A DNA stretch of 64,000 bases from the NCBI GenBank assembly GCA_963747985.1, contig CAVVHG010000012.1, positions 36,054 through 100,053 of the forward strand. Direction: 5' to 3'. The stretch comes from an uncultured Acidobacteriota bacterium. Its GTDB lineage: Bacteria; Acidobacteriota; UBA6911. This document shows, in pieces, positions 11,814 to 52,021 of the stretch. The notes under the pieces are model-generated. The model saw nothing but the letters and a program-made list of their open reading frames with translations. It was not told the origin of the DNA and searched no databases. Numbering within the stretch: position 1 is the stretch's first letter; each line of letters opens with the position of its first letter. Position numbers and translations under genes: made by a program.

Positions 11814-11837
11814 GGGGACACCGGTGACTGTCCCCCT
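11814..11837. repeat. G-rich palindromic REP-like element, copy 1 (GGGGGACACCGGTGACTGTCCCCC).
   Basis: Arms GGGGGACA / TGTCCCCC around a CACCGGTG core. Member of a 7-copy family in this window. Confidence 0.7.
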
Positions 11838-11848
11838 GAGAGGGTACG

Positions 11849-13024
11849 ATGGACCGACGTTCTTTCCTGGGGACCACGTTCGGAGGGGCTGCGCTGCAAG
11901 CTCTGCCCCGCGCCGTGTCGGCGGGCCAACCTCCGGCGATGAAGATCACGGATATCACGTTTCTGCACTTGCGTTTTCCGGGCACAACGCCTCGCAAGCG
12001 CAATGCAACCATCGCCAGCGGCGGCGGAGCGCCCGGGATGACCCAGCTCGAGGTTCATACGGACGCCGGGATCGTGGGACGCAGCATACCGTCGGCAAGC
12101 GAGGAACTGATCCGATCGCAGCTCCTGCCGCGCATAGTCGGGATGAACCCTTTTCACGTCGAGGCGATCTGGGACCGGATGTACCGCTACAACAGGAAAC
12201 CGGTAGCAAAAGGCCTCTACATTTCGGCGATGGGTTCAGTAGATCTTGCCATCTGGGACATCATCGGCAAGGCGCTGAATCTCCCGGTCTGCGACGTGCT
12301 TGGTGTCTTCTCGGAGACAATCCGGGTTTACGCGGCCGGCGGATACTACGAGGAGGACAAGGGTATCAGGGAACTGGTAAAGGAGATGGAGGGGTATGTT
12401 GCAGAGGGTTTCCAGGCCGTCAAGATGAAGGTCGGAGGGGAGCCGATGAGTACCGACCTGGAGCGGGTCCGGGCGGTGCGGGAGGCGATCGGTCCGAAGG
12501 TGGATCTGATGATCGACGCCAACAACAGGTGGACCGCTTACGATGCGATCCGGTTCGGCCGCATGGTCGAGAAATACGAGCCGTTCTGGTTCGAGGAGCC
12601 GGTGGAAGCGGACGACTTCGAGGGCTGCGCGGAGGTGAAGCGGACGCTCGATATCCCGATCGCCGCCGGCGAAAACGAGTTCACGCGCTGGGGAGCCCGC
12701 GACTTGATTCAATCGCACGCGGTGGACATATTGCAGTGTGATACGGTGCTGGCCGGCGGCATTACCGAAATGCGAAAGATCGCTGCCCTCGCTTCGGCCT
12801 GGCACATTCCCATGTCGCCGCACGGCAATCCGCACATGGCTGTGCACCTGCTTGCCTCGCTGCCGAATGCCGTAATCATGGAAACCTATCCTGCAGTCGA
12901 GAGCCGATTCAACCCGGCGCTTCCGCTTTTCCCTGTGAAGAACGGCTGCATTGACGTGCCCACGAGACCGGGCCTCGGAATAGACCCGGACCCAGAGCTC
13001 GTCAGGAAGTATCGCGTGACTTGA
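11849..13024 (+). CDS. Enolase-superfamily enzyme (mandelate racemase / muconate lactonizing enzyme family, sugar-acid dehydratase-like) with a TAT signal.
   Basis: MDRRSFLGTTFGGAALQALPRAVSA (TAT motif). The C-terminal part IDANNRWTAYDAIRFGRMVEKYEPFWFEEPV...IAAGENE...DILQCD carries the MR/MLE metal-ligand pattern. Confidence 0.8.
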   Translation: MDRRSFLGTTFGGAALQALPRAVSAGQPPAMKITDITFLHLRFPGTTPRKRNATIASGGGAPGMTQLEVHTDAGIVGRSIPSASEELIRSQLLPRIVGMNPFHVEAIWDRMYRYNRKPVAKGLYISAMGSVDLAIWDIIGKALNLPVCDVLGVFSETIRVYAAGGYYEEDKGIRELVKEMEGYVAEGFQAVKMKVGGEPMSTDLERVRAVREAIGPKVDLMIDANNRWTAYDAIRFGRMVEKYEPFWFEEPVEADDFEGCAEVKRTLDIPIAAGENEFTRWGARDLIQSHAVDILQCDTVLAGGITEMRKIAALASAWHIPMSPHGNPHMAVHLLASLPNAVIMETYPAVESRFNPALPLFPVKNGCIDVPTRPGLGIDPDPELVRKYRVT

Positions 13025-13090
13025 GTCGTTGACTATTGCTGACCATCGGTCAACTGCGGCGCCGGGGACGAGATAGACGAGGGATGCCGG

Positions 13091-14194
13091 GTGGCAGGCA
13101 TGGCGAAGTGTGAATTGATAGCAACGACGAATCGGCGGCGCACGCGCTGCGGCAAGAGGCCGCAGTATGCCGAAGGCCTCTACGATCTTGGCGGCAAGGT
13201 CTATGCCTGGATGGTCCCCAATGGTTCCTGGGGCGAATCGAACGCCGGATTGGTGGTGGGAGAAGGCGAATCACTCCTCGTCGATACCCTCTGGGACCTG
13301 AACTTCACGAGCGAGATGTTGCGGGCGATGGAGCCTATTACCCGAACCGCTCCCATAAGGTATCTGGTGAACAGTCACGCGGATGGAGACCACATCTGGG
13401 GGAACCAGCTCGTGAAGGATGCCGAGATAATCATGACGGCAGCCTGCAACGCGGAAGCCGGGAAGATGAACCCGGCTTCGATGGTCATGTTCGGCCGGCT
13501 TGCCAAGACCCTCGAAAAGTTCGGAATCGGCAAGGTGAAGCAGGTCGGAATCTACTTCCATGACATGGTTCGTCCCTATGACTTCAAGGGGATCGAGGTC
13601 AAGGCAGCCACTCGTACATTCGAAGGTGAGATGACGCTGGAGGTCGGCGGACGCCAGGTCCGGCTCATCGAGACCGGACCCGCTCATACCCTGGGCGACC
13701 TTATGGTCTGCGTGCCGGAAATGAAGACTCTCTTCTGCGGGGATATTCTCTTCACGGGATGCACACCTGTAGTATGGGCCGGGCCTGTCGGGAGGTACAT
13801 TTCCGCCCTGGAGAGGATACTCGGGATGGACGTAGAAGTCATGGTTCCAGGCCACGGGCCGATCAGCGATAGGGGCGCCGCTATTCTGCAGAAGGAATAC
13901 CTTGAGTACATCCGGGATGAAACAGGCAGGTGTTACAGGGCCGGGCTGTCCGCCACAGACAGCGCATACGAAATTGCCCGCAGCGATAGCTTCCGCGGGC
14001 AGGCGTTCTCGGGCTGGGATGCGCCTGAACGTGTCATGACCAACACGCACATACTCTACAGGCATCTGCAGGGGCGGAGCGGGCGCCTGAAGACCGCGGG
14101 GAAACTGAACATCCTGCGCCGACAGGCCATACTGGCTTGTGAATTGCGGAAATCGATTCCTGCCTCGACGAACGCACCCGAAGGTGGCGCATGA
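13091..14194 (+). CDS. MBL-fold metallo-hydrolase.
   Basis: VNSHADGDHIWG (a variant of the HxHxDH motif), ...ETGPAHTLGDLMV...FCGDILF...PGHGP. The start could be later (13100 or 13211). Confidence 0.65.
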   Translation: MAGMAKCELIATTNRRRTRCGKRPQYAEGLYDLGGKVYAWMVPNGSWGESNAGLVVGEGESLLVDTLWDLNFTSEMLRAMEPITRTAPIRYLVNSHADGDHIWGNQLVKDAEIIMTAACNAEAGKMNPASMVMFGRLAKTLEKFGIGKVKQVGIYFHDMVRPYDFKGIEVKAATRTFEGEMTLEVGGRQVRLIETGPAHTLGDLMVCVPEMKTLFCGDILFTGCTPVVWAGPVGRYISALERILGMDVEVMVPGHGPISDRGAAILQKEYLEYIRDETGRCYRAGLSATDSAYEIARSDSFRGQAFSGWDAPERVMTNTHILYRHLQGRSGRLKTAGKLNILRRQAILACELRKSIPASTNAPEGGA

Positions 14195-15201
14195 AGCTTG
14201 TCACCTTCCTCGATGATGCAGGCGCGGCACACATCGGCGCCCTTACAGACCGGGACAGGACGATCATCAAACTGCAGGCGGGCGCGCTGGCGAAGGACAA
14301 CGTCGAGTCTCCCTATTTCAGAGACATGCTGTCGTTTCTCGAGGGAGGACTGCCCGCAAGGGAGGAGGGGGAGGCGATCGTCAGGTTCGTGGAGGACCGG
14401 CGCCCGCCCGGTGCCGGCGTTCCGCTTGACGCGGTAACACTGCTGGCTCCTGTCCCGCGCCCCGAGTCGATCCGGGATTGCCTGTGCTTCGAACAGCACA
14501 TCATCAACTGCATCCGGGTGGTGGGACTGAAGCGGCTCGCTCCGCTCGATGAGTGGATCGAGAGGGTCTTCGGGCGCAAGCGATCGATCGCCTACTTCGG
14601 CAACAAGGCCTGGTACGAACGCCCCGTCTATTATAAGAGCAACCGCTTTTCGGTGGTCGGAACAAACGCGGAAGTGAGAGTGCCGCCCTACACACGGCAG
14701 TTCGATTATGAACTCGAATGGGGGATCTTCATCGGGAAGAAGGGGACTGACATTCCCGGGGAACGAGCTCGTTCGTACATAGGCGGCTACACCATCTTCA
14801 ACGACTTCTCGGCGCGGGACATCCAGATGGAGGAACGGTACGGCCGTCTTGGCCCCGCGAAGGGCAAGGATTTCGATACCGGCAATGCCATGGGACCATG
14901 CCTGGTCACTCCCGACGAGATCGGGGATCCGTACGATCTGACCATGCTGGCCCGGGTGAACGGACAGGAGTGGTCGCGGGGCACGACGGCCGATATGGGT
15001 TGGTCCTTCGAGGATCTCATTGAGTACATCTCGAAATCGGAGACTCTCTATCCCGGGGAGTTTATCGGTTCAGGCACTTGTTCCGGCAGCCAGGGGTGCG
15101 GTTGCGGGTTGGAGATGGGCAGGTATATCAAAGCCGGGGATGTGGTCGAGCTCGAGGTCGAGAAGATCGGAATTCTGAGGAACAGCATCGTCGGCAGATG
15201 A
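14191..15201 (+). CDS. Fumarylacetoacetate hydrolase (FAH) family protein.
   Basis: ...YELEWGIFIGKKGTDIP...YIGGYTIFNDFSARDIQ...GPAKGKDFDTGNAMGPCLVT... is a typical FAH fold. The ATG overlaps the stop of the upstream MBL gene (ATGA). Confidence 0.8.
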   Translation: MKLVTFLDDAGAAHIGALTDRDRTIIKLQAGALAKDNVESPYFRDMLSFLEGGLPAREEGEAIVRFVEDRRPPGAGVPLDAVTLLAPVPRPESIRDCLCFEQHIINCIRVVGLKRLAPLDEWIERVFGRKRSIAYFGNKAWYERPVYYKSNRFSVVGTNAEVRVPPYTRQFDYELEWGIFIGKKGTDIPGERARSYIGGYTIFNDFSARDIQMEERYGRLGPAKGKDFDTGNAMGPCLVTPDEIGDPYDLTMLARVNGQEWSRGTTADMGWSFEDLIEYISKSETLYPGEFIGSGTCSGSQGCGCGLEMGRYIKAGDVVELEVEKIGILRNSIVGR

Positions 15202-15246
15202 AAGTGGGCACAATCCACACTCACTCCCGCTCGCAGGTGCACACGG

Positions 15247-15399
15247 CTATCGCGTCAGACGAAAGACCACGAGGGCGAGGACGACAGCTGCCAGCAGTAT
15301 CAGGCCTATGTAGAGCCCCAGCCGTCTCTTCTTGGCTCGGCGTTCCTGTCGCTCATCAGCCTGGGCGTATCTTGCCCGCATAGTCTCACGAAACTCCGT
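15247..15399 (-). CDS. Possible 50-aa single-TM small protein.
   Basis: Hand translation gives MDYTEFRETMRARYAQADERQERRAKKRRLGLYIGLILLAAVVLALVVFRLTR. GGGAGA lies 5 nt upstream of the ATG. It is shorter than the ORF-track cutoff. Confidence 0.2.
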   Translation of the reverse strand, partial: TEFRETMRARYAQADERQERRAKKRRLGLYIGLILLAAVVLALVVFRLTR

Positions 15400-15608
15400 G
15401 TAGTCCATGGCGATCTCCCACTCCCTGCTGCACGACCCTAAAGCATATCATAGCAGGATACGGCATTTCTTCGACCGGGGCGCTGGCCCATGCCGCCGGC
15501 CAGGGTAACGCGCTCACTTCGCGCCGGAGCATTACGCTGCGAGTGACACCCCGATCGGTATAGAATGACGACAGATCCGGCGCCAACTGTCCAGGAAGGA
15601 GGAACGAG

Positions 15609-16832
15609 ATGGCATCTCATCACACGGAACCATTCGATAGTTGCGATCTTAACCGTCGTGGATTTCTCGCGGCCACCACGGGAGCTGCGGCCTTTGCTGT
15701 CATGACATCGAAGACGGCGCTGGGCACAGAGGCCAATTCCGCGGTCTCCGTGGGCATCATCGGTTGTGGCTGGCGCGGCAATCATTTGGCCGGGATACTG
15801 AAGAACCTCGACCGTACGGGGATAAGGGTTGCGGCGCTGGCGGATCTCTTTGACGACCGCCTGGAAGAATCCAGGGCCCACTACCCCGACGACAAACCCG
15901 CGGCCTTCCGGGGTCTGGATGCATATCAGAAGTTGGTTGCTGCCCCGTGCGACGCGGTGTTGATTACCTCTCCTCCCTACTTCCACCCGGACCACCTGGA
16001 GGCTGCGGTCGGCGCGGGGAAACACGTTTACCTCGAGAAGCCGGTGGCTGTGGACGCGGCCGGTGCACAGCGAGTTCTCGCGTGCGGCAAGAAAGGGGAA
16101 GGGCATCTGACACTGTGCGTTGGGTTCCAGAGCCGGTCCCGGGCGGACCTCGTCGAGGCGGTCAGCCGTACGCGGCAGGGAGCTGTGGGACGGCTCGTCT
16201 GCGGAAGCGCTTACTATAACGCAGGCTTGATGGAGCCGAAGGACAAGCCCGGCATGAGCGAACGGGAAAAACGAATGAGGAACTGGGTGTTTGACCAGGT
16301 TCTATCGGGAGACATCATTGTCGAACAGAATGTCCACGTTCTGGATATCTGCAACTGGGTGGTCGGGACGCATCCTCTGCAGGCCTTTGCTACCGGCGGG
16401 CGAAAAGTGAGAACGTCGGTCGGCGATACGTGGGACCATTTCGAAGTCACTCTGTGGTATCCCGGCGACGTACAAATGGTCTTCTCATCGACGCAGTTCC
16501 TGAACCTGGGGTGGGGCGACGCCCAGCAGAGGTTCTACGGTTCCAACGGGGCCTTGGAGCTGAAGGCGGGAGATACGCTGAAAGGGAGCGCTGCAATTCG
16601 AGGTGGAAATGCATGGGCCTTTCAGGGCGAGGTGGAGAATCCCGAAGTCGTCAGACTGCGAGGATTTCTCGACAGTATCAGGAAGGGGGAAAACACCAAC
16701 GAGATTTCCGTCGGTGTCGATTCAACCCTGACCGGGATCCTGGCGCGCACTGCCGCTTACCGTGGTGCGGGATATAGCTGGGACAAGATGCTCGAGGAAA
16801 ATGAGAGACTGAACGCAGGTAAACTCGATTAG
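15609..16832 (+). CDS. Gfo/Idh/MocA family oxidoreductase, TAT-exported.
   Basis: RBS GGAGGA. NRRGFLAATTGAAAFAV (TAT), VGIIGCGWRGNHL (Rossmann), ...KHVYLEKP. Confidence 0.8.
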   Translation: MASHHTEPFDSCDLNRRGFLAATTGAAAFAVMTSKTALGTEANSAVSVGIIGCGWRGNHLAGILKNLDRTGIRVAALADLFDDRLEESRAHYPDDKPAAFRGLDAYQKLVAAPCDAVLITSPPYFHPDHLEAAVGAGKHVYLEKPVAVDAAGAQRVLACGKKGEGHLTLCVGFQSRSRADLVEAVSRTRQGAVGRLVCGSAYYNAGLMEPKDKPGMSEREKRMRNWVFDQVLSGDIIVEQNVHVLDICNWVVGTHPLQAFATGGRKVRTSVGDTWDHFEVTLWYPGDVQMVFSSTQFLNLGWGDAQQRFYGSNGALELKAGDTLKGSAAIRGGNAWAFQGEVENPEVVRLRGFLDSIRKGENTNEISVGVDSTLTGILARTAAYRGAGYSWDKMLEENERLNAGKLD

Positions 16833-16983
16833 TCCCCAGGTATTCAGCCCTCAGGTCCGCCAGGCAGGTCCGGAATGCCAGACCGGACCGAGGATCTCCC
16901 GGCTTGCACGGCAAATCACTTGCGATGGGCCGCAGTGGCTATAGACGTGGCCATCGGGTCCATGAGAATGGAGAACGGGCGCC

Positions 16984-18066
16984 ATGTTGATTCCCGAATT
17001 TTTCCGCATAAAGAGTGCTGCGGCGATTTCCGCTATGACCTGCCTCGCTGTTTTGCTGGGCTGGCCTGCCGGCTCGGCCAGGCTTCTTGCCGGTGGCACT
17101 CCTGACCGGGCGCCGCGCAAGGTGATCCTGGGCACTGCCATGCAGGCGTTCTGGGGGGACTATCCGGGGCTGCAGAGGCGACTGGCGCAACTGGAATCGA
17201 TCCTGGACACCATGAACGAGCAGTCCAGGAAGAAGTTCGGCCGTGGTCTGGATCTTGCGGTACTGCCCGAGGTTGCCGTGACGGGCGAAATCACCGGTGA
17301 CATAGTTGCGCATTCGGTTCCCTATGATGGCCCGGTGAGGGCGACATTCTCGCGCAAGGCGCGCGAACTGGGCTGCTACCTTGTCGTGCCGCTTTACCTC
17401 CTGGAGGATAAGGAGCGGAGGATTTGCACCAACTCGGCCGTCCTGGTGGATCGCAAGGGTGACGTAGTGGGGATCTACCGCAAGCTGCAGTTGGCGGTCC
17501 AGAACGGCAGCGACTCGATGGAAGGCGGAATGACGCCGGGCAAGCAGGCTCCGGTCTTTGACTGCGATTTCGGCAGGCTGGGAATACAGATCTGTTTTGA
17601 TATCGAGTTTGACTATGGTTGGGAGCAACTCGCAAAGCAGGGAGCAGAGCTGGTGGCCTGGCCGACGCAGTCACCGCAGACCGCGCACCCGGCTTCGCGC
17701 GCGATGCGGCACGGCTTCTACATCGTGTCCAGCACCTGGCGGGACAATGCCTCCATCTTCGAACCCACCGGCAAGATCGTTTCGCAGATCAGAGCTCCCG
17801 CGCAGGTTCTCGTCGATCAGATCGACCTCAGCTATGCCATCCTGCCCTGGAGTCCGCAGCTGCAGCAGGGTGAATCGCTCAAGAAGAAGTACGGTGACCG
17901 TGTCGACTTCCACTACTACGTGGACGAGGACTGTGGCCTGTTCTGGTCCAACGATCCCGGCCTCACTATCGGGCAGATGATGCGATCCATCGGTGTTGCC
18001 GGTGCTGAAGATGAACTCAAACGCGTCCGGCAGCTTTACCGCAAGGCAGGTGTCCCTGGGTACTGA
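16984..18066 (+). CDS. Carbon-nitrogen hydrolase (nitrilase superfamily) protein.
   Basis: ...LDLAVLPEVAVTG...RKGDVVGIYRKLQL...GIQICFDIEFDYGWEQLAKQGAELVAWPTQSP... with a conserved catalytic-Cys context. The start may be the downstream Met at 17035. Confidence 0.75.
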   Translation: MLIPEFFRIKSAAAISAMTCLAVLLGWPAGSARLLAGGTPDRAPRKVILGTAMQAFWGDYPGLQRRLAQLESILDTMNEQSRKKFGRGLDLAVLPEVAVTGEITGDIVAHSVPYDGPVRATFSRKARELGCYLVVPLYLLEDKERRICTNSAVLVDRKGDVVGIYRKLQLAVQNGSDSMEGGMTPGKQAPVFDCDFGRLGIQICFDIEFDYGWEQLAKQGAELVAWPTQSPQTAHPASRAMRHGFYIVSSTWRDNASIFEPTGKIVSQIRAPAQVLVDQIDLSYAILPWSPQLQQGESLKKKYGDRVDFHYYVDEDCGLFWSNDPGLTIGQMMRSIGVAGAEDELKRVRQLYRKAGVPGY

Positions 18067-18102
18067 GGAGGTGTCCTCTTCTGATGAAAGGATGATGGAT
18101 CG

Positions 18103-18675
18103 GTGAAGATCGTTACTGTGCTCGGAAGTCCGCGAAAACGCGGCAATACCGCAGCAGTCCTGGAGGCTTTTGAGCGCTTGGCTTCTGAGAATCAGCACAC
18201 AGTTGAGCGCATCAATGCCGTGGATTTTACTGTCCGGGGTTGCCTGGGTTGTGATGCATGCTTTGAGGTTCCCGATGAGCCAGGATGTGCCCAGGACGAT
18301 GATGATGCCGTCTGGATACTCAAACGCATTCTGGAAGCTGACCTCGTCGTATACGCGACGCCCGTATATGCCTGGGGATTCACGGCTCAGGTGAAGCCTT
18401 TGATCGACCGGCACTACTGTCTGGTCAAATGGCAGGGGGACGAAGTTGCCTCTGCGCTGATGGCCGGTAAGCGCGCCGCCCTGCTGGCGACCTGTGGCGG
18501 CGATGCGGCAGGCAACGCTGACTTGCTGGAGGAGGCGTTCAAACGCCTGTTGGATTACGCGCAGTGTCAGCCGGCAGGCGTCTACGTGCTGGACAATTGT
18601 GGCAGCAGACCGGTTGGGCCCTGCGCAGATGGTGAAGCGCTGGCCCGGCGCATGGCACGCGAATTGCTCCCCTGA
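18103..18675 (+). CDS. NADPH-dependent FMN reductase / flavodoxin-like fold protein.
   Basis: KIVTVLGSPRKRGNTAAVLEAF...DLVVYATPVYAWGFTAQVKPLIDR. Likely a GTG start. Confidence 0.7.
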   Translation: MKIVTVLGSPRKRGNTAAVLEAFERLASENQHTVERINAVDFTVRGCLGCDACFEVPDEPGCAQDDDDAVWILKRILEADLVVYATPVYAWGFTAQVKPLIDRHYCLVKWQGDEVASALMAGKRAALLATCGGDAAGNADLLEEAFKRLLDYAQCQPAGVYVLDNCGSRPVGPCADGEALARRMARELLP

Positions 18676-18791
18676 GTTATCAGCCGGGCTCGAGTCGCAC
18701 AGGACAGCTTCGCATCTGTCTGTTTCAGGAGTTCCAGCCGGGGCCGCGCCCGCAACCAACAAACGCCATCGTACCGGATCGGATCCAATAG

Positions 18792-20537: not shown

Positions 20538-20703
20538 GCATCTTTTGCTCCTGCCGGAAAGCCGCTGCCGGCTCTCCCTCCTTTCTATCCAATCTGCCAA
20601 GGAAGCATCCGATGCTTTGTACAAAGCGCGCTGCAACACCTTGCCTGCTCCCACTGGAACATCCTACACTGGGACGGCACAAGAGAGCTAACCGCATGCT
20701 CAG

Positions 20704-24394: not shown

Positions 24395-24413
24395 AAGACG
24401 GAGACAATGAAAA

Positions 24414-42579: not shown

Positions 42580-43909
42580 GTGGACATGACCCGAAAATTG
42601 CTTGTTCTCACGGTAGTGTCCTGCGCTTGTCTTCTCGGGCCTTTTCCCAAGACTGTGCGGGCTCAGGACACCGGCGCGACGCTTGAAGCAGCGAAATTCG
42701 ATCCAGTCGCCGCCACGGAATCGTATCTCGCCAGAATTCCTGCGGGAAAGCGGGCACAATCGGATGCATATTTTGAAGGAGGCTACTGGCTTCAGCTCTG
42801 GGACTTCGTGATCGGGGTCGGCCTCGCTTACCTGCTGCTCGCGGGGCGGTGGTCAGCCGGGATGAGAGACTCTGGCTGAACGCCTGACGCGGCGAAGGCC
42901 GCTGCAGACTCTCATCTACTGGATCCAATATCTCATCGTGACGACGCTGATCACATTCCCGATGACCGTTTACCAAGACTACTTTCGGGAGCACAAGTAC
43001 GGCCTGGCAACTCAGACTCTGGGGCCCTGGCTGGGAGATCAGCTCAAGAGCCTGATGGTAGGATCGATCCTGGGCGGAATTCTCATCATGGCGCTGTACG
43101 GCGTCGTCCGGAAGCTGCCGCGGACCTGGTGGATGTGGGGCCCGGTGGTGATGATTGTGTTGACGATCTTTGCGCTTCTCATCGGCCCCGTCTTTATTGA
43201 GCCTCTGTTCAACAAGTACACGCCCCTCACAGATCCTGCCATCCGCGAACCAATACTCAGGCTGGCGCGCGCGAACGGCATTGAAACCAACGACGTTTAC
43301 GTGTTTGACGCTTCCCGTCAAACGACCAGAGTCTCGGCGAATGTCGCCGGGTTTCTCGGCACCGAGCGCATCGCCTTGAACGACAACCTTTTGAAGCGAT
43401 GCACTCTCCCCGAGATCGAAACCGTCATGGCCCACGAAATGGGTCACTATGTCCTGAACCACATTTATAAGATGCTCAACTTTTTCCTGATCATCACGGT
43501 CGTCGGCTTTGTCTTCCTCCGATGGTCGTTCGATTTCAGCCTGAAGAAATGGGGGCGGAAATGGGGCGTGCGCGACATCGGCGATATGGCCGGGTTGCCC
43601 CTTGTCGTACTCCTCTTTTCCATTTTCTTCTTTTTTGTGACCCCCGTTACGAATACTTTCATTCGAGTCCAGGAAGCCGAGGCTGACATATACGGATTGA
43701 ACGCCGCGCGGCAACCGGATGGTGAAGCTGAGGTGGAGCTAAAGCTCGGTGAATATCGCAAGATGTCGCCGGGGTCCATCGAGGAGTTCATTTTCTACGA
43801 CCACCCGAGCGGCCGAAACCGGATCCTCATGGCAATGAGATGGAAGGCCGAGAATCTCGACCAGATGCCGGTCCGTGTGCCCGCGCAATCGACGGCGCCG
43901 GCCCCGTGA
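42580..43909 (+). CDS. M48 family metallopeptidase (Ste24 / CAAX-protease-like). The N-terminal 99 aa and the remaining 323 aa are separated by an apparent frameshift near 42865.
   Basis: ORF 42580..42879 (signal/TM region, ...GYWLQLWDFVIGVGLAYLLLAGRWSAGMRDSG-stop). The following frame reads ETLAERLTRRRPLQTLIYWIQYLIVTTLITFP...HEMGHYVLNH (HExxH)...EADIYG. A one-nucleotide shift within GGGATGAGAGACTCTGGCTGAACGC joins the two. Confidence 0.65.
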
Positions 43910-44050
43910 TTGCGCGTTTGGAAAGTCGCTGCTACAAGATGATGAATGGCCCTGTTCCGGGGCGAGTTGAGCGCCGCTCGGCGCGGTCGCTTACCGTCAC
44001 CGAAAGATGATAGACATCTCCCGACCGTTTCGAGAATTCAAGGAGACCAG

Positions 44051-46153
44051 ATGCGATTGACGATTTTCGCCGCCTGCCTGAGCTGTTTTCTCTATGTTGC
44101 CGCCTGCTCGCGGTCAAAGGCTCCGACTTCCAACCCTCTCCTTGCCGAATGGAAGACTCCATTTGGCGTGCCGCCGTTCGATCGCTTCAAACCGGAGGAC
44201 TTCATGCCGGCATTCGAGGAGGCGATCCGGCTGCATCACGCGGAGGTCGCAGCGATAGTCGAGGACACGAATCCCCCCGCTTTCGACAACACGGTCGCCG
44301 CCCTCGATGATTCCGGTGAGGCTCTGGCCCGGGTGAACAGCGTATTTGGTCTCCTGACCGGAGCCGAGACCAATGATCGCTTGCAGGCGATCGAAGCCAA
44401 AGTCGAGCCGATGCTTGCGGCGCACAATGACGACATCTACCTGAATGAATCCCTGTTCAAGCGAGTGAAGGCCGTTTATGACGGGCGCGACAATCTCAAG
44501 CTGGACACGGAACAGGCCACACTTCTGCGGAATGTCTACCGGCGCTTCTTGAGAGGCGGCGCCAACCTCACCCCGGCTCAGAAAGCGCGCCTGCGCGAAA
44601 TCAACCGGGAGCTGTCGACGCTGATCGTGAAGTTCTCCAACAACCTTCTGGAACAGACCAATGCATACAAGCTCGTCGTAGATTCAAAAGACCAGCTCGC
44701 CGGGTTGCCCGAGGACCAGCTGGCGGCAGCTGCGGCGGCCGCCGCGGAGGCCGGCCTTTCTGGTAAGTGGGTGTTCACTCTGAAGGCGCCCTGCATCTGG
44801 CCGTTCCTGCAGAGCTCCTCGAATCGTGACCTGCGCCGGCAGATTCTCACGGCTTACGCAAACCGCTGCGACAAAACCGGAGAGACCGACAACACTGTCG
44901 TCTTTGCGACGATCGCGAAGCTGCGCATCGAGAAGGCGCAGCTTCTGGGCTACAGGACGTGGGCCAACTTCATCCTCGACGAGTATATGGCGAAGAATCC
45001 CGAGAATGTGTACCAGCTGTTGGAGCAGCTCTGGAAGCCGGCGCTGGCCCGGGCAAAAGAGGAAGCCTTCGACATGCAGGCCATGATCGACCGCGAGAGG
45101 GGCGGATTCAGACTCGAGCCGTGGGACTGGCGATACTATTCCGAGAAGGTTAAGAGAGCGAAGTACGATCTTGATGAGGAGGCGATCAAACCGTACCTGC
45201 CGATCGACGAGGTGCGTGAGGGCGCGTTCACGCTGGCGAACAAGCTTTACGGCATAACTCTCGCGGAGCTCACGAACGTGCCCGTCTACCATCCCGAGGT
45301 GAAAGTCTTCGAGGCCAGGGAGAAGGACGGTAAGTTCATCGGCATCCTGTACATGGATTTCTATCCGCGGCCGGGCAAACGTGGCGGTGCCTGGTGCTCC
45401 ACGATCCGGGACCAGTGGATCAAAGAGGGCCAGTTCGTGACTCCGATCGTCTACAGCGTGTTCAACTTCACCAGACCGACACACGACACGCCGGCGCTGC
45501 TGACGCGGGACGAGGCGGAGACGCTCTTCCATGAGTTCGGCCACGCGTTGCACTCCCTGTTCTCAGCCTGCCGTTTCCGCGGGAGCAGCTTCTATATCGC
45601 CCAGGACTTCGTCGAACTGCCGAGCCAGGTGATGGAGAACTGGGTCTTCGAGCCTCAGCTCCTCAAATTGTATGCGCGCCACTACAAGACGGGAGAGATA
45701 ATGCCGGAGGCACTGGTGGCGAGGATTCGCAAGGCCATGACATTCAACCAGGGCTTCGAGATGACCGAGTACCTGGCAGCGTCTTTCCTGGATATGGACT
45801 GGCACACGTTGACCGAACCGAAGCTCCAGGACGCCGATGCTTTCGAAAAGGCGAGCATGGCCAGGTGGGGACTGATTCCGCAGATCCTGCCGCGCTATCG
45901 GACGCCCTACTTCGCGCATGCGGCTGACGAGTATTCGGCCGGCTACTACAGTTACACATGGAGCGCGGTGCTTGACTCCGACGCGTTCCAGGCGTTCAAA
46001 GAGAAGGGCGACCTTTTCGACCCTGAAACCGCGGCGGCTTTCCGCCAGCTTCTTTCAAAAGGCGGGGGTGAAGATCCTGCGGTGTTGTTCCGGCAGTTCC
46101 GCGGCCGCGACCCGAAGGTGGACGCCCTGCTGATCAAGCGTGGCCTCAGGTAG
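44051..46153 (+). CDS. dcp: M3 family metallopeptidase (peptidyl-dipeptidase Dcp / oligopeptidase A-like), lipoprotein.
   Basis: RBS AAGGAG. MRLTIFAACLSCFLYVAACS (lipobox). ...TLFHEFGHALHSLFS (HEFGH zinc motif). About 700 aa. Confidence 0.85.
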   Translation: MRLTIFAACLSCFLYVAACSRSKAPTSNPLLAEWKTPFGVPPFDRFKPEDFMPAFEEAIRLHHAEVAAIVEDTNPPAFDNTVAALDDSGEALARVNSVFGLLTGAETNDRLQAIEAKVEPMLAAHNDDIYLNESLFKRVKAVYDGRDNLKLDTEQATLLRNVYRRFLRGGANLTPAQKARLREINRELSTLIVKFSNNLLEQTNAYKLVVDSKDQLAGLPEDQLAAAAAAAAEAGLSGKWVFTLKAPCIWPFLQSSSNRDLRRQILTAYANRCDKTGETDNTVVFATIAKLRIEKAQLLGYRTWANFILDEYMAKNPENVYQLLEQLWKPALARAKEEAFDMQAMIDRERGGFRLEPWDWRYYSEKVKRAKYDLDEEAIKPYLPIDEVREGAFTLANKLYGITLAELTNVPVYHPEVKVFEAREKDGKFIGILYMDFYPRPGKRGGAWCSTIRDQWIKEGQFVTPIVYSVFNFTRPTHDTPALLTRDEAETLFHEFGHALHSLFSACRFRGSSFYIAQDFVELPSQVMENWVFEPQLLKLYARHYKTGEIMPEALVARIRKAMTFNQGFEMTEYLAASFLDMDWHTLTEPKLQDADAFEKASMARWGLIPQILPRYRTPYFAHAADEYSAGYYSYTWSAVLDSDAFQAFKEKGDLFDPETAAAFRQLLSKGGGEDPAVLFRQFRGRDPKVDALLIKRGLR

Positions 46154-46154
46154 C

Positions 46155-46176
46155 GGGGGACATTCACCAGTGTCCC
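46155..46176. repeat. REP-like palindromic element, copy 2 (GGGGGACATTCACCAGTGTCCC), immediately 3' of dcp.
   Basis: Same family as 11814. Reverse orientation. Confidence 0.65.
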
Positions 46177-46274
46177 TTACGGGTCGGCGCGTCTCACTGA
46201 TGCAGTGGTGCTCGGTATGCCTGGTAAGAGGTACTAGCGCGCAGTTGCTCTGTTTCCGGCTGTGGTCTTACTCT

Positions 46275-47207
46275 TCAGTTCATTCGGGACACCGGTGACT
46301 GTCCCCCTCTGATCTCTACGACGATCCGGAAGGGGTTTGGCGTCTCCGAGACCGTGCACTCGGCCCCGGGCTTCAGATCGAGTACTATGCGGACGATACC
46401 AGGCTGGTACTGGGCTGCGCGGACCCTCCTGAGGAATCGGTCGTTGACGGGAACGATACTGTCGGACGTATCCAGGACAAGCCAGGTGTTGGAGAAATCC
46501 AGGAAGAATCTGTCCGGGTTTCTGATTCGTTGCACCTGGTAACCGGCGCGCTCGTCAAAGTCTATCGTCACGCGCGTGTGATCAGCCTCGGACCGGTAGT
46601 TGATACTCCGAACGGCCGCGGCCCGCACGCCTGCCTGCGGTGCCGGAGATTGTGCAGGGGCAGGTCCCGCCTTCGATTGCGGCTGAACGGCCTTTTCCGG
46701 CAACTGGGACGGCATGGGAACGCTTGGGGCGGGCTCCGACATCGCCTCCTGGGCCGGACCCATCGCAGCCAGGCGCAGAATCGCATAGGGCCTGAAGGGG
46801 CTGGCAGGGTAATCCTTCATGAGGAACCGCAATAGCCGCACTGCTTCCAGGTCATACTCAGGAGCTTTGAACCGCGCAGCTATTTCCTGGTAGAGAGTTG
46901 CGGCCTCATATATGGCGTCGTCGCTACCCTCAAAATGCGGATCACTCAAGTAGACGCGCTTGTAGAGGCTGATGCAGCGGAGGTAGTCACCTATGCCGGC
47001 CGATTGGTCGGCATCGAGTTTCTTCTTCAGCGTGCGCGCCTGGTTCAGCGCAGTCGCAGCAGTATCAGGGTCCCGTTGTTGGGCTCCACCGGGCCAGGGG
47101 AACCACAGCCCTGCCAGGACGGCGGCCAACAGGATCCGGGTGAATCCCCGGCCCCATCTCGCCCGGGCTTTGCCGCTCTGCATGTCTGCCATGCTAGGCC
47201 GACGCAT
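46275..47207 (-). CDS. Secreted TPR/YbgF-like plus AMIN-domain protein.
   Basis: N-terminal TPR-like region (ALNQARTLKKK...YPASPFRPYAILRLAAMG), an Ala/Pro/Gln-rich linker, and a C-terminal AMIN-like domain (RVTIDFDERAGYQVQRIRNPDRFFLDFSN...IVRIVLDLKPG...FRIVVEI). The last codons ([11 protein letters not shown]) are encoded by REP copy 3. The start is uncertain (47207, 47192 or 47183). Confidence 0.5.
   Translation of the reverse strand: MRRPSMADMQSGKARARWGRGFTRILLAAVLAGLWFPWPGGAQQRDPDTAATALNQARTLKKKLDADQSAGIGDYLRCISLYKRVYLSDPHFEGSDDAIYEAATLYQEIAARFKAPEYDLEAVRLLRFLMKDYPASPFRPYAILRLAAMGPAQEAMSEPAPSVPMPSQLPEKAVQPQSKAGPAPAQSPAPQAGVRAAAVRSINYRSEADHTRVTIDFDERAGYQVQRIRNPDRFFLDFSNTWLVLDTSDSIVPVNDRFLRRVRAAQYQPGIVRIVLDLKPGAECTVSETPNPFRIVVEIRGGQSPVSRMN
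46286..46307. repeat. REP-like palindromic element, copy 3 (GGGACACCGGTGACTGTCCCCC), overlapping the 3' end of the AMIN-protein gene.
   Basis: Identical core to copy 1. Confidence 0.7.
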
Positions 47208-47287
47208 GTGGGATGTCAACCAAGGTACTGAAACTGAAGGTATTGCAGGGAGTGCGCGCCGCCCGCATGTTGTGCCCGAAGCCGCTC

Positions 47288-47687
47288 TCACCTCGATGCA
47301 GGGCCCGGCAGCCGGATCTTCTGGAGCACCAGGCCATAGCGCGTTCCCGGCGGATTGGCCTTGATCTTCTCACCACTCCGGTCGGGAGCAAAGTTGCCCG
47401 AATAACAGAGTAGTCCCAATGTCGATGCCTCTTTTCCTGGTCTGCATATCCAGTTTGCCGTCAACCACCATCCGGGCCCGCCGCTGACGAATCGAGGCAC
47501 AAACGCACCGCCGCAGTCTCCTGAGGCGATGAGGGTCTTGGCCCAGGGCGAATTGGCGGCCAGCACAAGCGCTTCACTCCCGCTCCACCGGGTGAACGGC
47601 TTCTCCAGCCGGAAGTCCTCGGCCAGCACCGCAACCCACAGCCCTCAAACAAGTACAACCAAGACGCTGCACGGAATGCTCGTTCTT
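47288..47687 (-). CDS. Hypothetical secreted protein with an in-frame TGA (47642..47640) inside its signal peptide.
   Basis: GGGAGG lies 4 nt before ATG 47687. Hand translation gives MRRTSIPCSVLVVLV-[TGA]-GLWVAVLAEDFRLEKPFTRWSGSEALVLAANSPW... Without read-through, the only start is the GTG at 47629, which gives a protein with no signal peptide. Confidence 0.35.
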
Positions 47688-47720
47688 CTCATACGACCTC
47701 CCGTGCGACAGTGGCCCTGC

Positions 47721-49010
47721 CTACAACTTTGCGACCGTGACAACGATGGCGTCGCCGTTCTTGAACAACTCCGGCCTTATCTCCGCTCCGATGCCCGGCA
47801 GCTCCGACGGTCTCACCTCCCCCTGTTCCGGCACCGGCACGTTGTTTACAAAGTATGGGAACTGGTGTGTGTACTTCCAGTAATTGCTTTCCATGATCAG
47901 GAAGTTCGCGATCGCCGTGCATAGATGTATGGAACAGAAATAGAGCAGCGGCCCGCCGCAGGTGTGCGGTGATGTCGGGACCATGAATGTGTCGGCCATG
48001 TCTGATATTTTCCTGGCTTCCGACACACCGCCGCACCAGGTCGCGTCGTACATGACTACGTCGCATGCCTTCTGTTCCAGGAACGGCCGGAATTGGTATC
48101 GCGTGGCCAGAGTCTCGCTGGTGCAAATGGGCACGCTGGTCTCTCGGGCAAGTTGCACGTAAGCCTCCACGTTGCTCGAAAGCATGGCGTCCTCGAGATA
48201 CAGGATGTTGTAAGGTTCCAGTGCCTTGGCGATCCGGAGCGCGCTCGGCAGGTCGTAGCCTCCCCAACAATCGACGGCGATGTCCATCTGGTTACCGACG
48301 CTGTCGCGGATCTCACGAATCCACTTCATCCCCGTCTCCAGGGCCTGGTTGCCGATGTAGTTGTCGCGGCTGCCCTCAAATGGGTAGATCTTGATTGCGG
48401 TGACGCCCCGGTCGAGCAGGAATCGCACGATCTTCATGGTGTCCGGGCCCATCTTCATCCCGTTGATGGCCCAGTAATCAGTCGTCGTGTTGTAGACCCG
48501 TACCCTGCTTCGGCTCTTGCCGCCCAGCAGTCGGTAGAGGGGCAGCCCGGACGCCTGTCCGAGGATGTCCATCTGCGCCATGTTGATAGCGCTCAGGATC
48601 CGCATGTCCGCGCCGCCTGCGTTGCGCATGGCCATGTCCTTGTAGAAATCGCGCCATATGCCGTCGATGTCTCGCGCGTCCCGGCCGATGATTGAATGCG
48701 AGTAATCACGCAAAGCCCCTGTTTCGCCCTGGGAGAACGGATAGGTCTCGCCTGTTCCGATCAGGCCGTTGTCGGTATGCAGGCGAACCCACATGAACTC
48801 GGCACCATCGGCTCCGCCGGAGCCGCCGCCGATACGTATGTCCTTGCGGAAGGTTATCGCGTCGATCTGCGTGATCCTTAACGGCTCTGTCTTATCGATC
48901 GCTGCCTGCAGGGCGGCAGACCACAGCCTGCCGCCGAGCACTGTCGCCGTAGCTGCACCCAAACCCGCCTGCCTCAGGAAATCACGTCTGCGCATCGGAC
49001 GCTGTCTCAT
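47721..49010 (-). CDS. Enolase-superfamily (MR/MLE) enzyme with a TAT signal.
   Basis: MRQRPMRRRDFLRQAGLGAATATVLG (TAT). ...RITQIDAITF...GIGTGETYPF...IAVDCWGGYDL...ILYLEDAM...ICTSETL... Confidence 0.8.
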   Translation of the reverse strand: MRQRPMRRRDFLRQAGLGAATATVLGGRLWSAALQAAIDKTEPLRITQIDAITFRKDIRIGGGSGGADGAEFMWVRLHTDNGLIGTGETYPFSQGETGALRDYSHSIIGRDARDIDGIWRDFYKDMAMRNAGGADMRILSAINMAQMDILGQASGLPLYRLLGGKSRSRVRVYNTTTDYWAINGMKMGPDTMKIVRFLLDRGVTAIKIYPFEGSRDNYIGNQALETGMKWIREIRDSVGNQMDIAVDCWGGYDLPSALRIAKALEPYNILYLEDAMLSSNVEAYVQLARETSVPICTSETLATRYQFRPFLEQKACDVVMYDATWCGGVSEARKISDMADTFMVPTSPHTCGGPLLYFCSIHLCTAIANFLIMESNYWKYTHQFPYFVNNVPVPEQGEVRPSELPGIGAEIRPELFKNGDAIVVTVAKL

Positions 49011-49029
49011 CTCTCTTCCCTTTCTTCGA

Positions 49030-49052
49030 GGGGGACAGTCACCGCTGTCCCC
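49030..49052. repeat. REP-like palindromic element, copy 4 (GGGGGACAGTCACCGCTGTCCCC), in the 5' leader of the enolase gene.
   Basis: Reverse orientation relative to copy 1. It sits 20-42 nt upstream of start codon 49010. Confidence 0.7.
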
Positions 49053-49128
49053 TGTGATGCTGGCTGGAGCGGTGTCTTGCGTACCGGTTGCTCCGACTCT
49101 GGTTTTGGCGTTTTCCATGGTGCGCTGA

Positions 49129-49150
49129 GGGACAGTGGTGACTGTCCCCC
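49129..49150. repeat. REP-like palindromic element, copy 5 (GGGACAGTGGTGACTGTCCCCC).
   Basis: Same family. It lies in the divergent intergenic region 49011-49337. Confidence 0.7.
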
Positions 49151-49306
49151 TCACGCATCCATGGCCCGCGACAAATCGAAAATCAGGTCTTCAACGTCTT
49201 CGATGCCCACGGAATAGCGACCCGATTCATCATTTGGAGCCACCCCTGTCACCTGTGAATTGTTGAGGTCCTTTTGGGCGGATATGATTATGAACCTAAT
49301 TGAGTG

Positions 49307-49323
49307 GGACAGTCACCCTCCCT
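49307..49323. repeat. Partial REP-like element, copy 6 (GGGACAGTCACCCTCCC), one arm only.
   Basis: Half-site of the same family, directly upstream of the NlpC/P60 RBS. Confidence 0.45.
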
Positions 49324-49337
49324 CTCCGAGGAGAACT

Positions 49338-49925
49338 ATGCGAACCATTCCGGCGCGGCTGTTGCATGGAACGGCGGGAGCACGGCGCCGATACCTTGCT
49401 GCTGCATTGCTTGTCGTGATCGTCCTTTCCGGGTGCTCTCACAAGGGGCCGGGTAAGGACTGGCAGACCCTGGTCAGCACGGTCCGGGCCAGGTTCGCCC
49501 CAGATGCCCGCCTGGCAGTTTTTCGCGTAGACCTGCGTGCCGATGGCGACCGGATCATTGCGAACGGCGAAGTTGAGAGCAAAGCCGCAAAGGGAATCGA
49601 TTGTTCGGGCTTCGTCAAGACTGTCCCCACCCTGAATGGAATGCCACTGGATCGGGATGCCGATCGGCAGGCGCAGCAGGGGGAAGATGTACTTGCGGAG
49701 GCCGCGTTCCAGAATCTCCGGTGCGGGGATCTCCTGTTCTTTGGAGAGAAGGCCGTCGTCGACAAACCGGAGCGCATCGTGCACGTCGGCATCTACCTCA
49801 AGGACCGGAAGTTCATCCACTGTTCGGGCAGGGCGCGGGTCAGCAGCCTGGACCCGGCTGCGGCGGAATACGATGAGCGGCACGCCAAAGGCTTCGTCCG
49901 CGCACGACGCTTCGTCGCCCCCTGA
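49338..49925 (+). CDS. NlpC/P60 (C40) family peptidoglycan hydrolase lipoprotein.
   Basis: RBS GAGGAG. MRTIPARLL...LLVVIVLSGCSHKG (lipobox). GIDCSGFV (catalytic Cys), HVGIYL, and FIHCSG-type His. Confidence 0.75.
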   Translation: MRTIPARLLHGTAGARRRYLAAALLVVIVLSGCSHKGPGKDWQTLVSTVRARFAPDARLAVFRVDLRADGDRIIANGEVESKAAKGIDCSGFVKTVPTLNGMPLDRDADRQAQQGEDVLAEAAFQNLRCGDLLFFGEKAVVDKPERIVHVGIYLKDRKFIHCSGRARVSSLDPAAAEYDERHAKGFVRARRFVAP

Positions 49926-49948
49926 CTCATGCCGGACTGTGATGTTGC

Positions 49949-50006
49949 CGTGGTCGTCCAAGCGCAGCGATTACAGCCGGAATTGAACCTCCGACGACCA
50001 CGGGTC
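49949..50006. repeat. Long-stem inverted repeat (11-bp perfect arms CCGTGGTCGTC / GACGACCACGG, ~36-nt loop) between convergent genes.
   Basis: Seen directly in the sequence between the NlpC/P60 stop and the typA stop. Possibly a bidirectional terminator-like structure. It is not a tRNA; a T-arm pairing test failed. Confidence 0.4.
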
Positions 50007-50020
50007 CATGTCCGGCTCCG

Positions 50021-51848
50021 TCAGGCGGAGCGTTGCTTCGGGCGCTGGTTGTATGCGAGGACCCGCTTGCGCAGCCGGATCGACACGGGGGTGACCTCAA
50101 CGAGCTCATCGTCGTTTATGAATTCGAGCGCCTGCTCCAGCGACAGCTCGCGGAAGGGCACCAACCGGATAGCCTCGTCGGCGGTCGAGGCACGCATGTT
50201 GGTGAGCTTCTTCTCCTTCACGACGTTCACGTCGAGATCCACATTACGCGCATTCTCTCCGATAACCATTCCTTCGTACACGTCGGTCCCGGGCCGGATG
50301 AACAGCTCCCCGCGTTCCTGGAGGTTGTAGAGCGCGTAGCTGGTCGCTGATCCCGGACGGTCTGCGACGAGGGCTCCCGTGAGCCGGTTTGTGATTTCGC
50401 CCGCCCACTCTCCCCAGCGCAGGAACATGGTGTTGAGCAGGCCGGTACCCTTGGTGTCGGTCAGGAACTCGGAACGGAAGCCGATGAGTCCCCGGGAAGG
50501 GGCTTCGAACTCCAGGCGGACTCGGCCGCTGCCGTGATTGATCATGCGGGTCATGTGCCCCTTGCGCCTGCCCAGCGCTTCGGCTACGACGCCGATGAAA
50601 AGCTCGGGGCAATCGACCACGACCATTTCGATCGGCTCCATCCTTCTGCCGTCGACACTGCGGGTGATCACCTCGGGTTTGGAGACCTGCATCTCATAGC
50701 CTTCCCGTCGCATCATCTCGATGAGGATGGCCAGCTGCAATTCGCCGCGGCCGGACACCTTGAAGCTGTCCATTCCCTCGGTCTCGTTGACCCGGATGGC
50801 CACGTTCCCGAGCACCTCCTTCTCCAGCCGCGCGCGGAGCTGGCGCGAGGTCACGTACCGGCCATCCCGGCCGGAAAACGGAGATGTGTTTACCGAAAAG
50901 ATCATCGAAATGGTTGGCTCGTCGACGTGGATGGCGGGAAGCGGCAGAGGGTCTTCCTCGTCGGCCACGGTCTCCCCGATGAAGATACCTTCGATCCCCG
51001 CCAGGGCCACGATGTCCCCGGCCGATGCTTCGGTCACCGGCTTCTGCTTCAGCCCTTCGAACGAGTAGAGTTGCGTGATGCGCGTCTTCTGGATCGTGCC
51101 GTCGAGTTTGCAGACCGACACTCCATCCCCAACCGCGACCTTCCCGGAGAATACCCGGCCGATGGCGATCCGGCCGACGTAGTCGCTGTAATCAAGAGTG
51201 GTTACGAGCATCTGCAATTTTGTCTCGTGCCGTGGGCAAGGCGCGGGAATGCTTTCGACGATCTGTTCGAAAAGCGGGCGGAGGTCCTGCGAGGCGTCTT
51301 CAAGGCTCCGGCGTGCGATGCCGTCGCGGCTGATCGCATAGAGGATCGGGAAGCCGATCTGCGCCTCGGTGGCGTCGAGGTCGATGAAGAGATCGTAGAT
51401 CTCGTTCACAACCTCCTGCGGCCGGGCGTCGGCCCGGTCTATCTTGTTCACTACCACTATCGCGGGGAGTTTCTCCTCGAGGGCCTTGCGCAGCACGAAG
51501 CGCGTCTGAGGAAGCGGCCCCTCCGAAGCGTCAACCAGCAGCATGACTCCGTCGACCATCTTCAAAACGCGCTCGACCTCGCCGCCGAAATCCGAATGGC
51601 CAGGGGTGTCGACGATGTTGATCTTTATGCCCCGGAAGAAGACGGCCGTGTTCTTGGCCATGATTGTGATACCGCGCTCGCGCTCGAGATCGAGGTTGTC
51701 CATGACACGCTCGACCACGCGCTCGTTGTCGCGAAAGGTGCCGCTCTGTCTGAGCATTGCGTCGACGAGGGTAGTCTTTCCGTGGTCGACGTGAGCGATG
51801 ATGGCCACATTCCGGACGTCTGTCCGGGTGGCGCTATTAGGTGCCAAG
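50021..51848 (-). CDS. typA: Translational GTPase TypA/BipA.
   Basis: [27 protein letters not shown] (G1), DTPGH (G3), NKID (G4), and EF-G-like domains. The start is ambiguous. TTG 51848 follows GGAG and gives about 609 aa, consistent with BipA. The ATG at 51955 is an alternative. Confidence 0.85.
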
Positions 51849-51998
51849 GCTGTGTTCTCCGTGCCTGAATGGATGTGCGCGCCGGGCTCCCGACTTTCCT
51901 GTTCGTTCAGCCGGCTGCTGAGAAAACGGCCGCCCGCGGCTTCGCGGCGGACCATAATGATAGCGCGCCTGGCGCGGGCATCAAACACGCATCTGCGA

Positions 51999-52021
51999 GG
52001 GGGACAGTCACCAGTGTCCCC
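51999..52021. repeat. REP-like palindromic element, copy 7 (GGGGGACAGTCACCAGTGTCCCC), upstream of typA.
   Basis: Same family, in the typA leader / intergenic region. Confidence 0.7.

Follow-up and report, generated by a model that had tools for sequence, protein, structure and literature searches.

A family of REPIN-like hairpin doublets linked to a RAYT-type transposase in Acidobacteriota

A short, G-rich palindrome recurs along a 64-kb stretch of an uncultured Acidobacteriota genome (contig CAVVHG010000012.1; hereafter, the window), which raises the question of what this repeat is and by what means it came to occupy its sites. An earlier note had listed seven copies and likened them to repetitive extragenic palindromic (REP) sequences or bacterial interspersed mosaic elements (BIMEs). 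[quoted passage not shown]

Hairpin repeats in the window are arranged as inverted doublets

Searching the window with the core GGTGACTGTCCCCC, allowing at most two mismatches, returned seven matches, compared with a mean of 0.78 and a maximum of 4 in dinucleotide-preserving shuffles (n = 100); none of the 100 shuffles reached seven. The matches begin at 11823 (+), 46155 (-), 46294 (+), 49030 (-), 49137 (+), 49304 (-) and 51999 (-), and all seven copies reported earlier are real, with coordinates that agree to within 1-2 nt. The consensus unit is a hairpin of approximately 24 nt, GGGGACA[C/G]N-GGTGAC-TGTCCCC(C), represented in the window by six full units and one half-site. All six full copies are recovered by the 20-nt pattern GGGACAN4TGACTGTCCC, and a position-weight matrix built from copies in other genomes scores them at 30-41 bits, against a mean null maximum of 4.7. 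The same scan added an eighth, decayed copy at 52131-52155 (+), which scores 13.1 bits where 0.04 matches above 12 bits are expected per window.

Though initially described as separate units, the six full copies and the decayed eighth form three inverted doublets (d1, 46155/46286; d2, 49030/49129; d3, 51999/52131) and a singlet at 11814, which leaves the half-site at 49304. The features are as follows, where L201 denotes a syntenic contig from a relative (loci outside the window carry L numbers throughout):

11814-11837 (+): singlet hairpin GGGGGACACCGGTGACTGTCCCCC; 38.9 bits; -8.3 kcal/mol, z -3.0
46155-46176 (-): d1 left half, with one core mismatch (GGTGAATGTCCCCC); 30.6 bits; orthologous doublet in L201
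46177-46285 (unstranded): d1 spacer, 109 nt; motif GTTGCTCTGTTTCCGG at 46244-46259, 42 nt from the right half
46286-46307 (+): d1 right half; 36.1 bits
49030-49052 (-): d2 left half; 37.4 bits; -9.2 kcal/mol
49053-49128 (unstranded): d2 spacer, about 77 nt; motif GTTGCTCCGACTCTGG at 49087-49102
49129-49150 (+): d2 right half; 37.6 bits
49304-49317 (-): half-site remnant GGTGACTGTCCCAC; core match, no second arm
51999-52021 (-): d3 left half; 41.1 bits
52022-52130 (unstranded): d3 spacer, about 110 nt; motif GTTGCTCCGTTTTTGG at 52094-52109
52131-52155 (+): d3 decayed right half (GAGGGACACTGATAACAGACCCCGT); 13.1 bits; the orthologous half in L201 is better preserved

Folded as single-stranded DNA, the six full copies form hairpins with stems of 6-9 bp (-4.3 to -9.2 kcal/mol). 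Their folding is better than that of shuffled sequence in five cases (z -2.1 to -3.4), the exception being the copy at 46286 (z -0.9). The half-site, correctly recognized as such in the earlier note, formed no hairpin on folding (z +0.3). Doublet d2 as a whole folds into a single hairpin with a 24-bp stem (-34.4 kcal/mol, z -5.8).

The spacers of d1, d2 and d3 show no significant full-length similarity. All three nonetheless contain a 16-nt motif, GTTGCTCYGnnTnnGG, in + strand orientation and 39-42 nt from the right half. It has only these three occurrences in the window and none in the other 193 loci searched. Because it is shared by these doublets only, the three are copies of one lineage-specific subfamily; they also have the same orientation (n = 3). 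A search of the whole window against Rfam at gathering thresholds gave no matches.

The repeat belongs to a family with sharp boundaries and genome-specific variants

Scanning species-representative genomes with the pattern GGGACANNGGTGACTGTCCC, we found the element in at least 108 loci. Nearly all of these lie in metagenome-assembled genomes (MAGs) of Acidobacteriota, with approximately 20 assemblies or species among the matches listed, whose labels include Bryobacterales, Bryobacteraceae, Paludibaculum and Terriglobia. The same pattern found no element in 2.9 million viral contigs. The flanks of the copies are unrelated, so the copies do not belong to a single duplicated segment; such a segment had been named in advance as an outcome that would undermine the REP/BIME-type assignment, and the further copies, together with the cognate RAYT described below, instead bear that assignment out.

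A sequence logo built from 225 copies with at most three mismatches shows that the element has sharp boundaries, with information content falling to approximately zero beyond positions -4 and +24. Within it, only the dinucleotide that follows GGGACA varies freely. This dinucleotide has a dominant variant in each MAG: GT in JAFGSS, CT in CAWEJX and CAYYTC, and CT or CC in CAYZTZ. In JAFGSS, 23 of 29 copies carry GT, and GT copies flank the transposase gene of that MAG. After removing the cluster by which each locus had been recruited, we counted one further cluster per 23 kb, compared with one per 13 kb in the window. If these densities are representative, a genome of 5-10 Mb would hold a few hundred clusters.

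Inverted doublets are the copied unit

Adjacent copies, counted as those at most 300 bp apart, are overwhelmingly arranged in one way: 72 pairs are oriented -+, none +-, 4 ++ and 4 --. About two thirds of all copies (144 of 225) are therefore members of inverted doublets, GGGGACAGTCACCnnTGTCCCC-spacer-GGGGACAnnGGTGACTGTCCCC, with spacers of 3-259 nt and modes near 9 and 34-47. The two halves of a doublet covary. In 53 of 70 doublets, their variable dinucleotides are complementary to each other, whereas 10,000 shuffles gave 26 such doublets on average and never more than 40; because the shuffle crosses genomes, this excess is in part due to genome-specific variants. Complementarity also extends 4-5 nt into the outer flanks, with match rates of 0.91, 0.62, 0.67, 0.59 and 0.42 before reaching a baseline of approximately 0.28. 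Whole doublets fold as one long hairpin (-33 to -35 kcal/mol, z -10 to -12.6).

Doublets that are identical or approximately 90% identical, spacers included, are found at unrelated loci of one genome (L006, L027, L098, L018/L095 and L058/L076), so that what is copied is the doublet rather than the single hairpin. Comparison of orthologous sites between MAGs shows singlets opposite doublets, with the junction exactly at TGTCCCC, the arm present as a direct repeat in the two halves. Singlets are thus most simply explained as deletion remnants of doublets.

The repeat brackets a RAYT-type transposase gene

Probing the loci with the E. coli RayT sequence (as in Additional file 5 of PMC3733652) gave a match in L043, where an ORF at 436-1092 encodes a protein of 218 aa; an ISHp608 TnpA probe used alongside gave no match. 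The L043 protein matches the Pfam family Y1_Tnp (PF01797) at 32.1 bits (cutoff 23) and the NCBIfam model NF047646, REP_Tyr_transpos, at 69.4 bits (E 2.9e-19) over profile positions 2-146 of 146, and its top sequence match in the PDB is 4ER8 (TnpA-REP). An AlphaFold model of P0001, which is 91% identical to it, is of high confidence (pLDDT 92.9) and has 4ER8_A as its top fold match (E 7e-9), with the transposases of IS608 and ISDra2 next.

The family is a large one, comprising 7,549 proteins at E <1e-20. In an alignment of 36 homologues of 213-234 aa, H60 and H62 (the HUH motif), Y119 and N123 are invariant and P124 is at least 90% conserved; the consensus motifs are NHVH, LWQ, Y[VI]ELNPVRA and WSS. 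In BLASTP comparisons, the L043 protein shares 38-43% identity along its whole length with the TIRYTs pca_3049, aba_2776, gsu_2396 and bbt_5382 (E 1e-48 to 1e-61), compared with 33% over 66 aa with E. coli RayT. By its NHVH, WQ and YIELNP motifs, the protein is a RAYT-type HUH/Y1 transposase of subclass 2.1/Group 1/TIRYT.

This gene is bracketed by the repeat in six independent loci in related MAGs and metagenomes, each with a (-) copy 44-55 nt before the start codon and a (+) copy at or after the stop. A search for such a cognate gene had been proposed in the earlier note as a check on the family. By identity of the encoded protein to that of L043, the bracketed genes are:

L043: 100%
L189-192: 91%
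L057: 72%
L197: 65%
L199: 65%
L193: 63%

The same 22-nt hairpin is thus kept while the transposase diverges to 63% identity. In L043, the (-) copy lies 48 nt upstream of the gene and the loop of the (+) copy supplies the stop; the last transposase codons and the TGA stop, contained in the loop GGTGAC, lie inside the 3′ hairpin both there (1071-1092) and in L189 (6636-6657). Homologues at 58% identity (L198) and lower (L109 onwards) have different flanking inverted repeats, many with the end GGGGACAG (for example, GGGGACAGGCTAC... and ...GGGTGACTGTCCCT). That the repeat changes with the protein fits the expectation for a cognate pair. Among the matches listed from a metagenome scan for relatives of the transposase, most are such distant homologues (39-58% identity).

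The transposase loci also differ among themselves. Of the four strain variants of the P0001 locus, one (L191) has an ISL3-family DDE transposase at 4699-5952, between the upstream doublet and the Y1 gene. A second indel at a repeat boundary is an insertion of 1.36 kb with a 499-aa ORF that L043 (1544-2904) has over L189 (7119-7138), directly beside a conserved copy. Most contigs carrying the transposase genes P0002-P0120 are only about 1-2 kb long, suggesting that the flanking repeats routinely break short-read metagenome assemblies.

Internal deletion connects the full element to short derivatives

The MAG CAYZTZ contains a full REP-transposase-REP element (L057, 2127-2935) together with at least three internally deleted derivatives, each lying between (-) and (+) hairpins (L058, 4049-4252; L076, 5166-5369; L073, 30-328). 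The interiors of the derivatives join the transposase leader and first 27-43 codons to the 3′ tail. Those of L058 and L076 are 164 bp long and 90% identical within unrelated flanks, and that of L073 is 259 bp. Because these derivatives lie elsewhere in the genome, movement of the full element or of its derivatives must have taken place. The short doublets probably represent the end-point of the same miniaturization.

These observations suggest a model in which the full element consists of a (-) REP, the transposase gene and a (+) REP, each hairpin unit being self-complementary with GGGGACA/TGTCCCC arms and a conserved loop containing GGTGAC. Internal deletion of this element would yield REP(-)-spacer-REP(+) doublets able to form one long hairpin in single-stranded DNA. 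Judging from E. coli TnpA-REP, IS608 and ISDra2, the transposase would bind the hairpin on single-stranded DNA, and its catalytic tyrosine would cleave beside the hairpin, after which the strands would be rejoined. Doublets would in this way be copied to new intergenic sites without target-site duplication, and singlets would arise from them by deletion between the directly repeated TGTCCCC arms. The genome from which the window derives presumably encodes such a transposase as well.

Alternative origins of the repeat

The distribution of copies between genome compartments could also be read as that of host-selected RNA or DNA signals, such as intrinsic terminators or mRNA 3′-end stabilizers, which would be conserved by function rather than spread by a transposase. 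By crude gene calls, density peaks in convergent intergenic DNA (1.76 copies per kb); tandem and divergent intergenic regions have approximately 0.83, and genes 0.06. In some MAGs, including CAYZTZ, doublets are flanked by AAAAG...CTTTT and resemble bidirectional terminators, and at d1 in the window both convergent genes meet a hairpin right past the stop. However, a terminator scan called none of the window copies, which have 3′ flanks of CCTC, CCTG or CCGC and no T-tract; intrinsic termination, suggested earlier for copies at convergent gene ends, is therefore unsupported there. Half of the window sites (4 of 8) are in divergent promoter regions. Furthermore, both loop and stem are invariant across about 20 species, where selection on structure alone would permit covariation, and host selection would account neither for the recurrence of whole doublets with their spacers at unrelated loci nor for a repeat that brackets a transposase gene in six loci. 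We therefore consider it unlikely that the family is of this origin, though a secondary, exapted terminator role may exist in some genomes.

The repeats might instead be miniature inverted-repeat transposable elements moved by a DDE-type transposase, such as the nearby ISL3, with the Y1 gene as a passenger. The units do act as terminal inverted repeats of a larger element, and an ISL3 transposase adjoins the Y1 gene in L191. Arguing against such a mechanism, we detected no target-site duplication of 2-5 bp at any boundary offset, direct repeats occurring at the frequency of the null. The ISL3 gene, present in only one of the four strain variants, interrupts the locus. The constant cargo of the six loci is the Y1 gene rather than a DDE gene, and it is the 5′ end of the Y1 gene that the deletion derivatives retain. 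Movement by a DDE enzyme is accordingly very improbable.

Strong conservation of a 22-nt sequence across species whose transposases have diverged to 63% identity would also be expected of a binding site for a host protein or of a DNA-uptake sequence, over-represented for cellular reasons. Neisseria uptake sequences often occur as inverted pairs, as does the element here. Yet the copies are nearly excluded from genes, where uptake sequences are common; their spacers span 3-259 nt; every genome carries a master variant of its own; and the element is physically linked to a transposase of a hairpin-binding type, with no competence or regulator gene associated. We give this explanation very little weight.

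Several observations weigh against a RAYT-mobilized REPIN family, our preferred interpretation. Across the 225 copies, the GTAG or GT[AG]G foot is absent, with only a weak A/A/T/G preference at positions -4 to -1. The L043 protein falls below the equivalog cutoff of NF047646 (69.4 versus 80 bits), which makes it a relative rather than an equivalog. The 64-kb window contains no Y1 transposase gene, and because its copies are old, partly decayed and mixed in their dinucleotide variants, activity of the family may have ceased in this genome. The relatives L194-196 and L200 have no copies in about 54 kb. An all-versus-all comparison of the flanks of 165 element clusters revealed singlet/doublet differences and no case of presence versus absence, and hence no clean empty site; mobility is for this reason deduced from copy structure rather than from insertion polymorphism. 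Finally, published surveys list subclass 2.1 as 'REP: no' (PMC6006769, Table 1) and report only about 12 genomic copies of the 16-mers that flank RAYT Group 1 genes (Bertels et al. 2017, PMC5581495).

Window copies abut gene ends, start sites and synteny breaks

Pfam confirmed the gene context given in the earlier note: an S15/CocE-NonD fragment, two enolase-superfamily genes, one of them with an RRRDFL twin-arginine leader, and genes for peptidase M3, AMIN, NlpC/P60, TypA and CYTH proteins. Upstream of the singlet, the ORF at 10660-11802 has an S15 match at about 11602-11790 that spans only profile positions 1-71 of 262, and its first 314 residues matched no Pfam family. Its stop lies 12 nt before the 11814 copy; that is, the gene is truncated at a repeat boundary. 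The copy itself ends 11 nt before the ATG of an enolase-superfamily gene. At d1, the left half begins 2 nt past the peptidase M3 stop codon, and the right half encodes the last ~10 residues of the minus-strand AMIN ORF (window 46275-46310), as had been noticed. On the minus strand, the enolase-superfamily gene with the twin-arginine signal has its ATG at 49010, 19 nt downstream of the d2 left half; the half-site precedes the NlpC/P60 start by 20 nt.

At each of the two enolase-superfamily paralogues, a hairpin stands 11-19 nt before the start, in the same orientation in both cases, and abuts the ribosome-binding site (11814-11851 and 49008-49052). In the 11814 copy, the 3′ arm contains CCCT, which could pair with AGGG in the Shine-Dalgarno region. 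A sigma-70-like match, GTGACT-18-CATAAT (49287-49316, minus strand), takes its -35 hexamer from the half-site, and another, TTGATG-16-TATCAT (51957-51984, minus strand), lies directly downstream of the 51999 copy on the typA side; both are matches to the consensus only.

Doublet d3 lies in the divergent region between typA and the CYTH gene, its left half 44 nt upstream of the TypA start on record. The recorded TypA (50021-51955, minus strand) is 644 aa long, compared with 595-613 aa in nearly all relatives; in most relatives the start is ~110 nt further downstream. The annotated start is thus probably ~36 codons too far upstream, and the distance from the 51999 copy to the gene would then be ~150 nt rather than 44. 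The effects of the repeats on host genes, at the AMIN C-terminus and just before ribosome-binding sites, are by-products.

The syntenic contig L201, whose TypA is 94% identical to that of the window, carries doublets in the orthologous CYTH-typA (d3) and AMIN-M3 (d1) intergenic regions. The hairpin halves are conserved while the spacers have diverged and differ by a 37-nt indel. Given these orthologous positions, the d1 and d3 insertions predate the split between the window and L201 and have been inherited vertically. L201 also has an extra doublet past the typA stop that is not found in the window, and d2 sits where the gene order of the window differs from that of L201. For the 11814 copy, the enolase orthologues in L194-196 (87-90% identity) have no element and no conserved upstream synteny, and thus offer no empty site. 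The proposal that these repeats mark rearrangement junctions accordingly gains one truncated S15 gene and two synteny differences in its favor, which are suggestive only.

Relation to known systems

These findings add a well-defined REP/REPIN-like family, with its transposase, to Acidobacteriota, an abundant, genetically little-studied soil phylum, and tie an abundant hairpin repeat to a RAYT subclass without a REP partner in surveys. In practical terms, the repeats break metagenome assemblies, alter gene ends (the AMIN C-terminus and the transposase stop) and adjoin ribosome-binding sites and synteny breaks, and for these reasons annotators should recognize them. The conceptual gain is incremental, as earlier publications already cover the class, its likely mechanism and, for related transposases, repeats with the GGGGWSAS end.

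The closest published relatives are TIRtrons, in which Y1 transposases (TIRYTs) are flanked by inverted repeats with the end GGGGWSAS, and which include acidobacterial examples (Di Nocera et al. 2013, PMC3733652). Some published terminal inverted repeats (TIRs) are self-complementary, repeated and dimeric, as for S. maltophilia ORF 1152 (PMC3733652), and those of Koribacter versatilis aba_2776 are reported not to be repeated. TnpA-Y1 subclass 2.1 is characterized by NHVH, W[EQ] and YIELNP motifs, an SS-containing C-terminal extension and lengths with a median of ~238 aa (Quentin et al. 2018, PMC6006769 Table 1). The transposase described here likewise has NHVH, WQ, YIELNP and WSS in about 220 aa, and the arm GGGGACA[G/C], fixed ~45-55 nt before the start codon, fits the published end. 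The present family differs from known TIRtrons in that the TIR is a compact 22-nt hairpin, which is kept across about 20 MAG species at roughly one cluster per 13-23 kb, and in that deletion intermediates between full element and doublets are visible.

Another acidobacterial family, the class 3 TnpA-Y1-associated structures of Solibacter usitatus (about 600 copies; PMC6006769), comes from the same phylum and order-level neighborhood (Bryobacterales MAGs) and is similar in scale of copy number, but its identity with our repeat is very unlikely, as the transposases have Y[IV]ELNP and WQ here versus YV[VI]xEQ and W[TA] in class 3 and the conserved CnGA foot is missing here, a separation that follows the published description, the supplements of PMC6006769 containing no acidobacterial repeat sequences. 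The sequence of the element was not found in a bacterial context in the literature searched. The earlier view that such a family was uncharacterized in Acidobacteria is thus only partly right: within that literature it holds for this sequence, though not for the phylum, from which both TIRYTs and the Solibacter family had been published.

Like the REP/REPIN-RAYT systems of Escherichia and Pseudomonas (Nunvar 2010; Bertels & Rainey 2011; Ton-Hoang 2012), the family consists of extragenic palindromes whose inverted doublets replicate and whose singlets are doublet remnants, with a master sequence per genome, a bracketed transposase and vertical inheritance. It differs from these systems in having no GTAG/GT[AG]G foot, a transposase of subclass 2.1 rather than 2.2 or 2.5, spacers of variable length, and copies that are not excluded from divergent promoter regions. 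Of the classical REP characters that could be tested, the GTAG foot is the only one it lacks.

Similarities to IS200/IS605 elements (IS608 and ISDra2) include the HUH/Y1 fold, hairpin ends, the absence of target-site duplication, and miniature derivatives formed by internal deletion. In contrast to these elements, the transposase here has Y---NP instead of Y---Q and is not accompanied by tnpB, and the two ends are inverted copies of one hairpin, where those of IS200/IS605 are distinct left and right ends on one strand.

Group 1/subclass 2.1 is the largest and least understood RAYT group and has been thought to be REP-less. We suggest, tentatively and with more doubt than confidence, that the family described here could be the first clear high-copy REPIN-type population tied to this group. 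If so, the full element, deletion intermediates and doublets found within one genome would offer a direct view of how a transposase-bearing element gives rise to REPINs, and a tractable system in which to study the function of Group 1 RAYTs.

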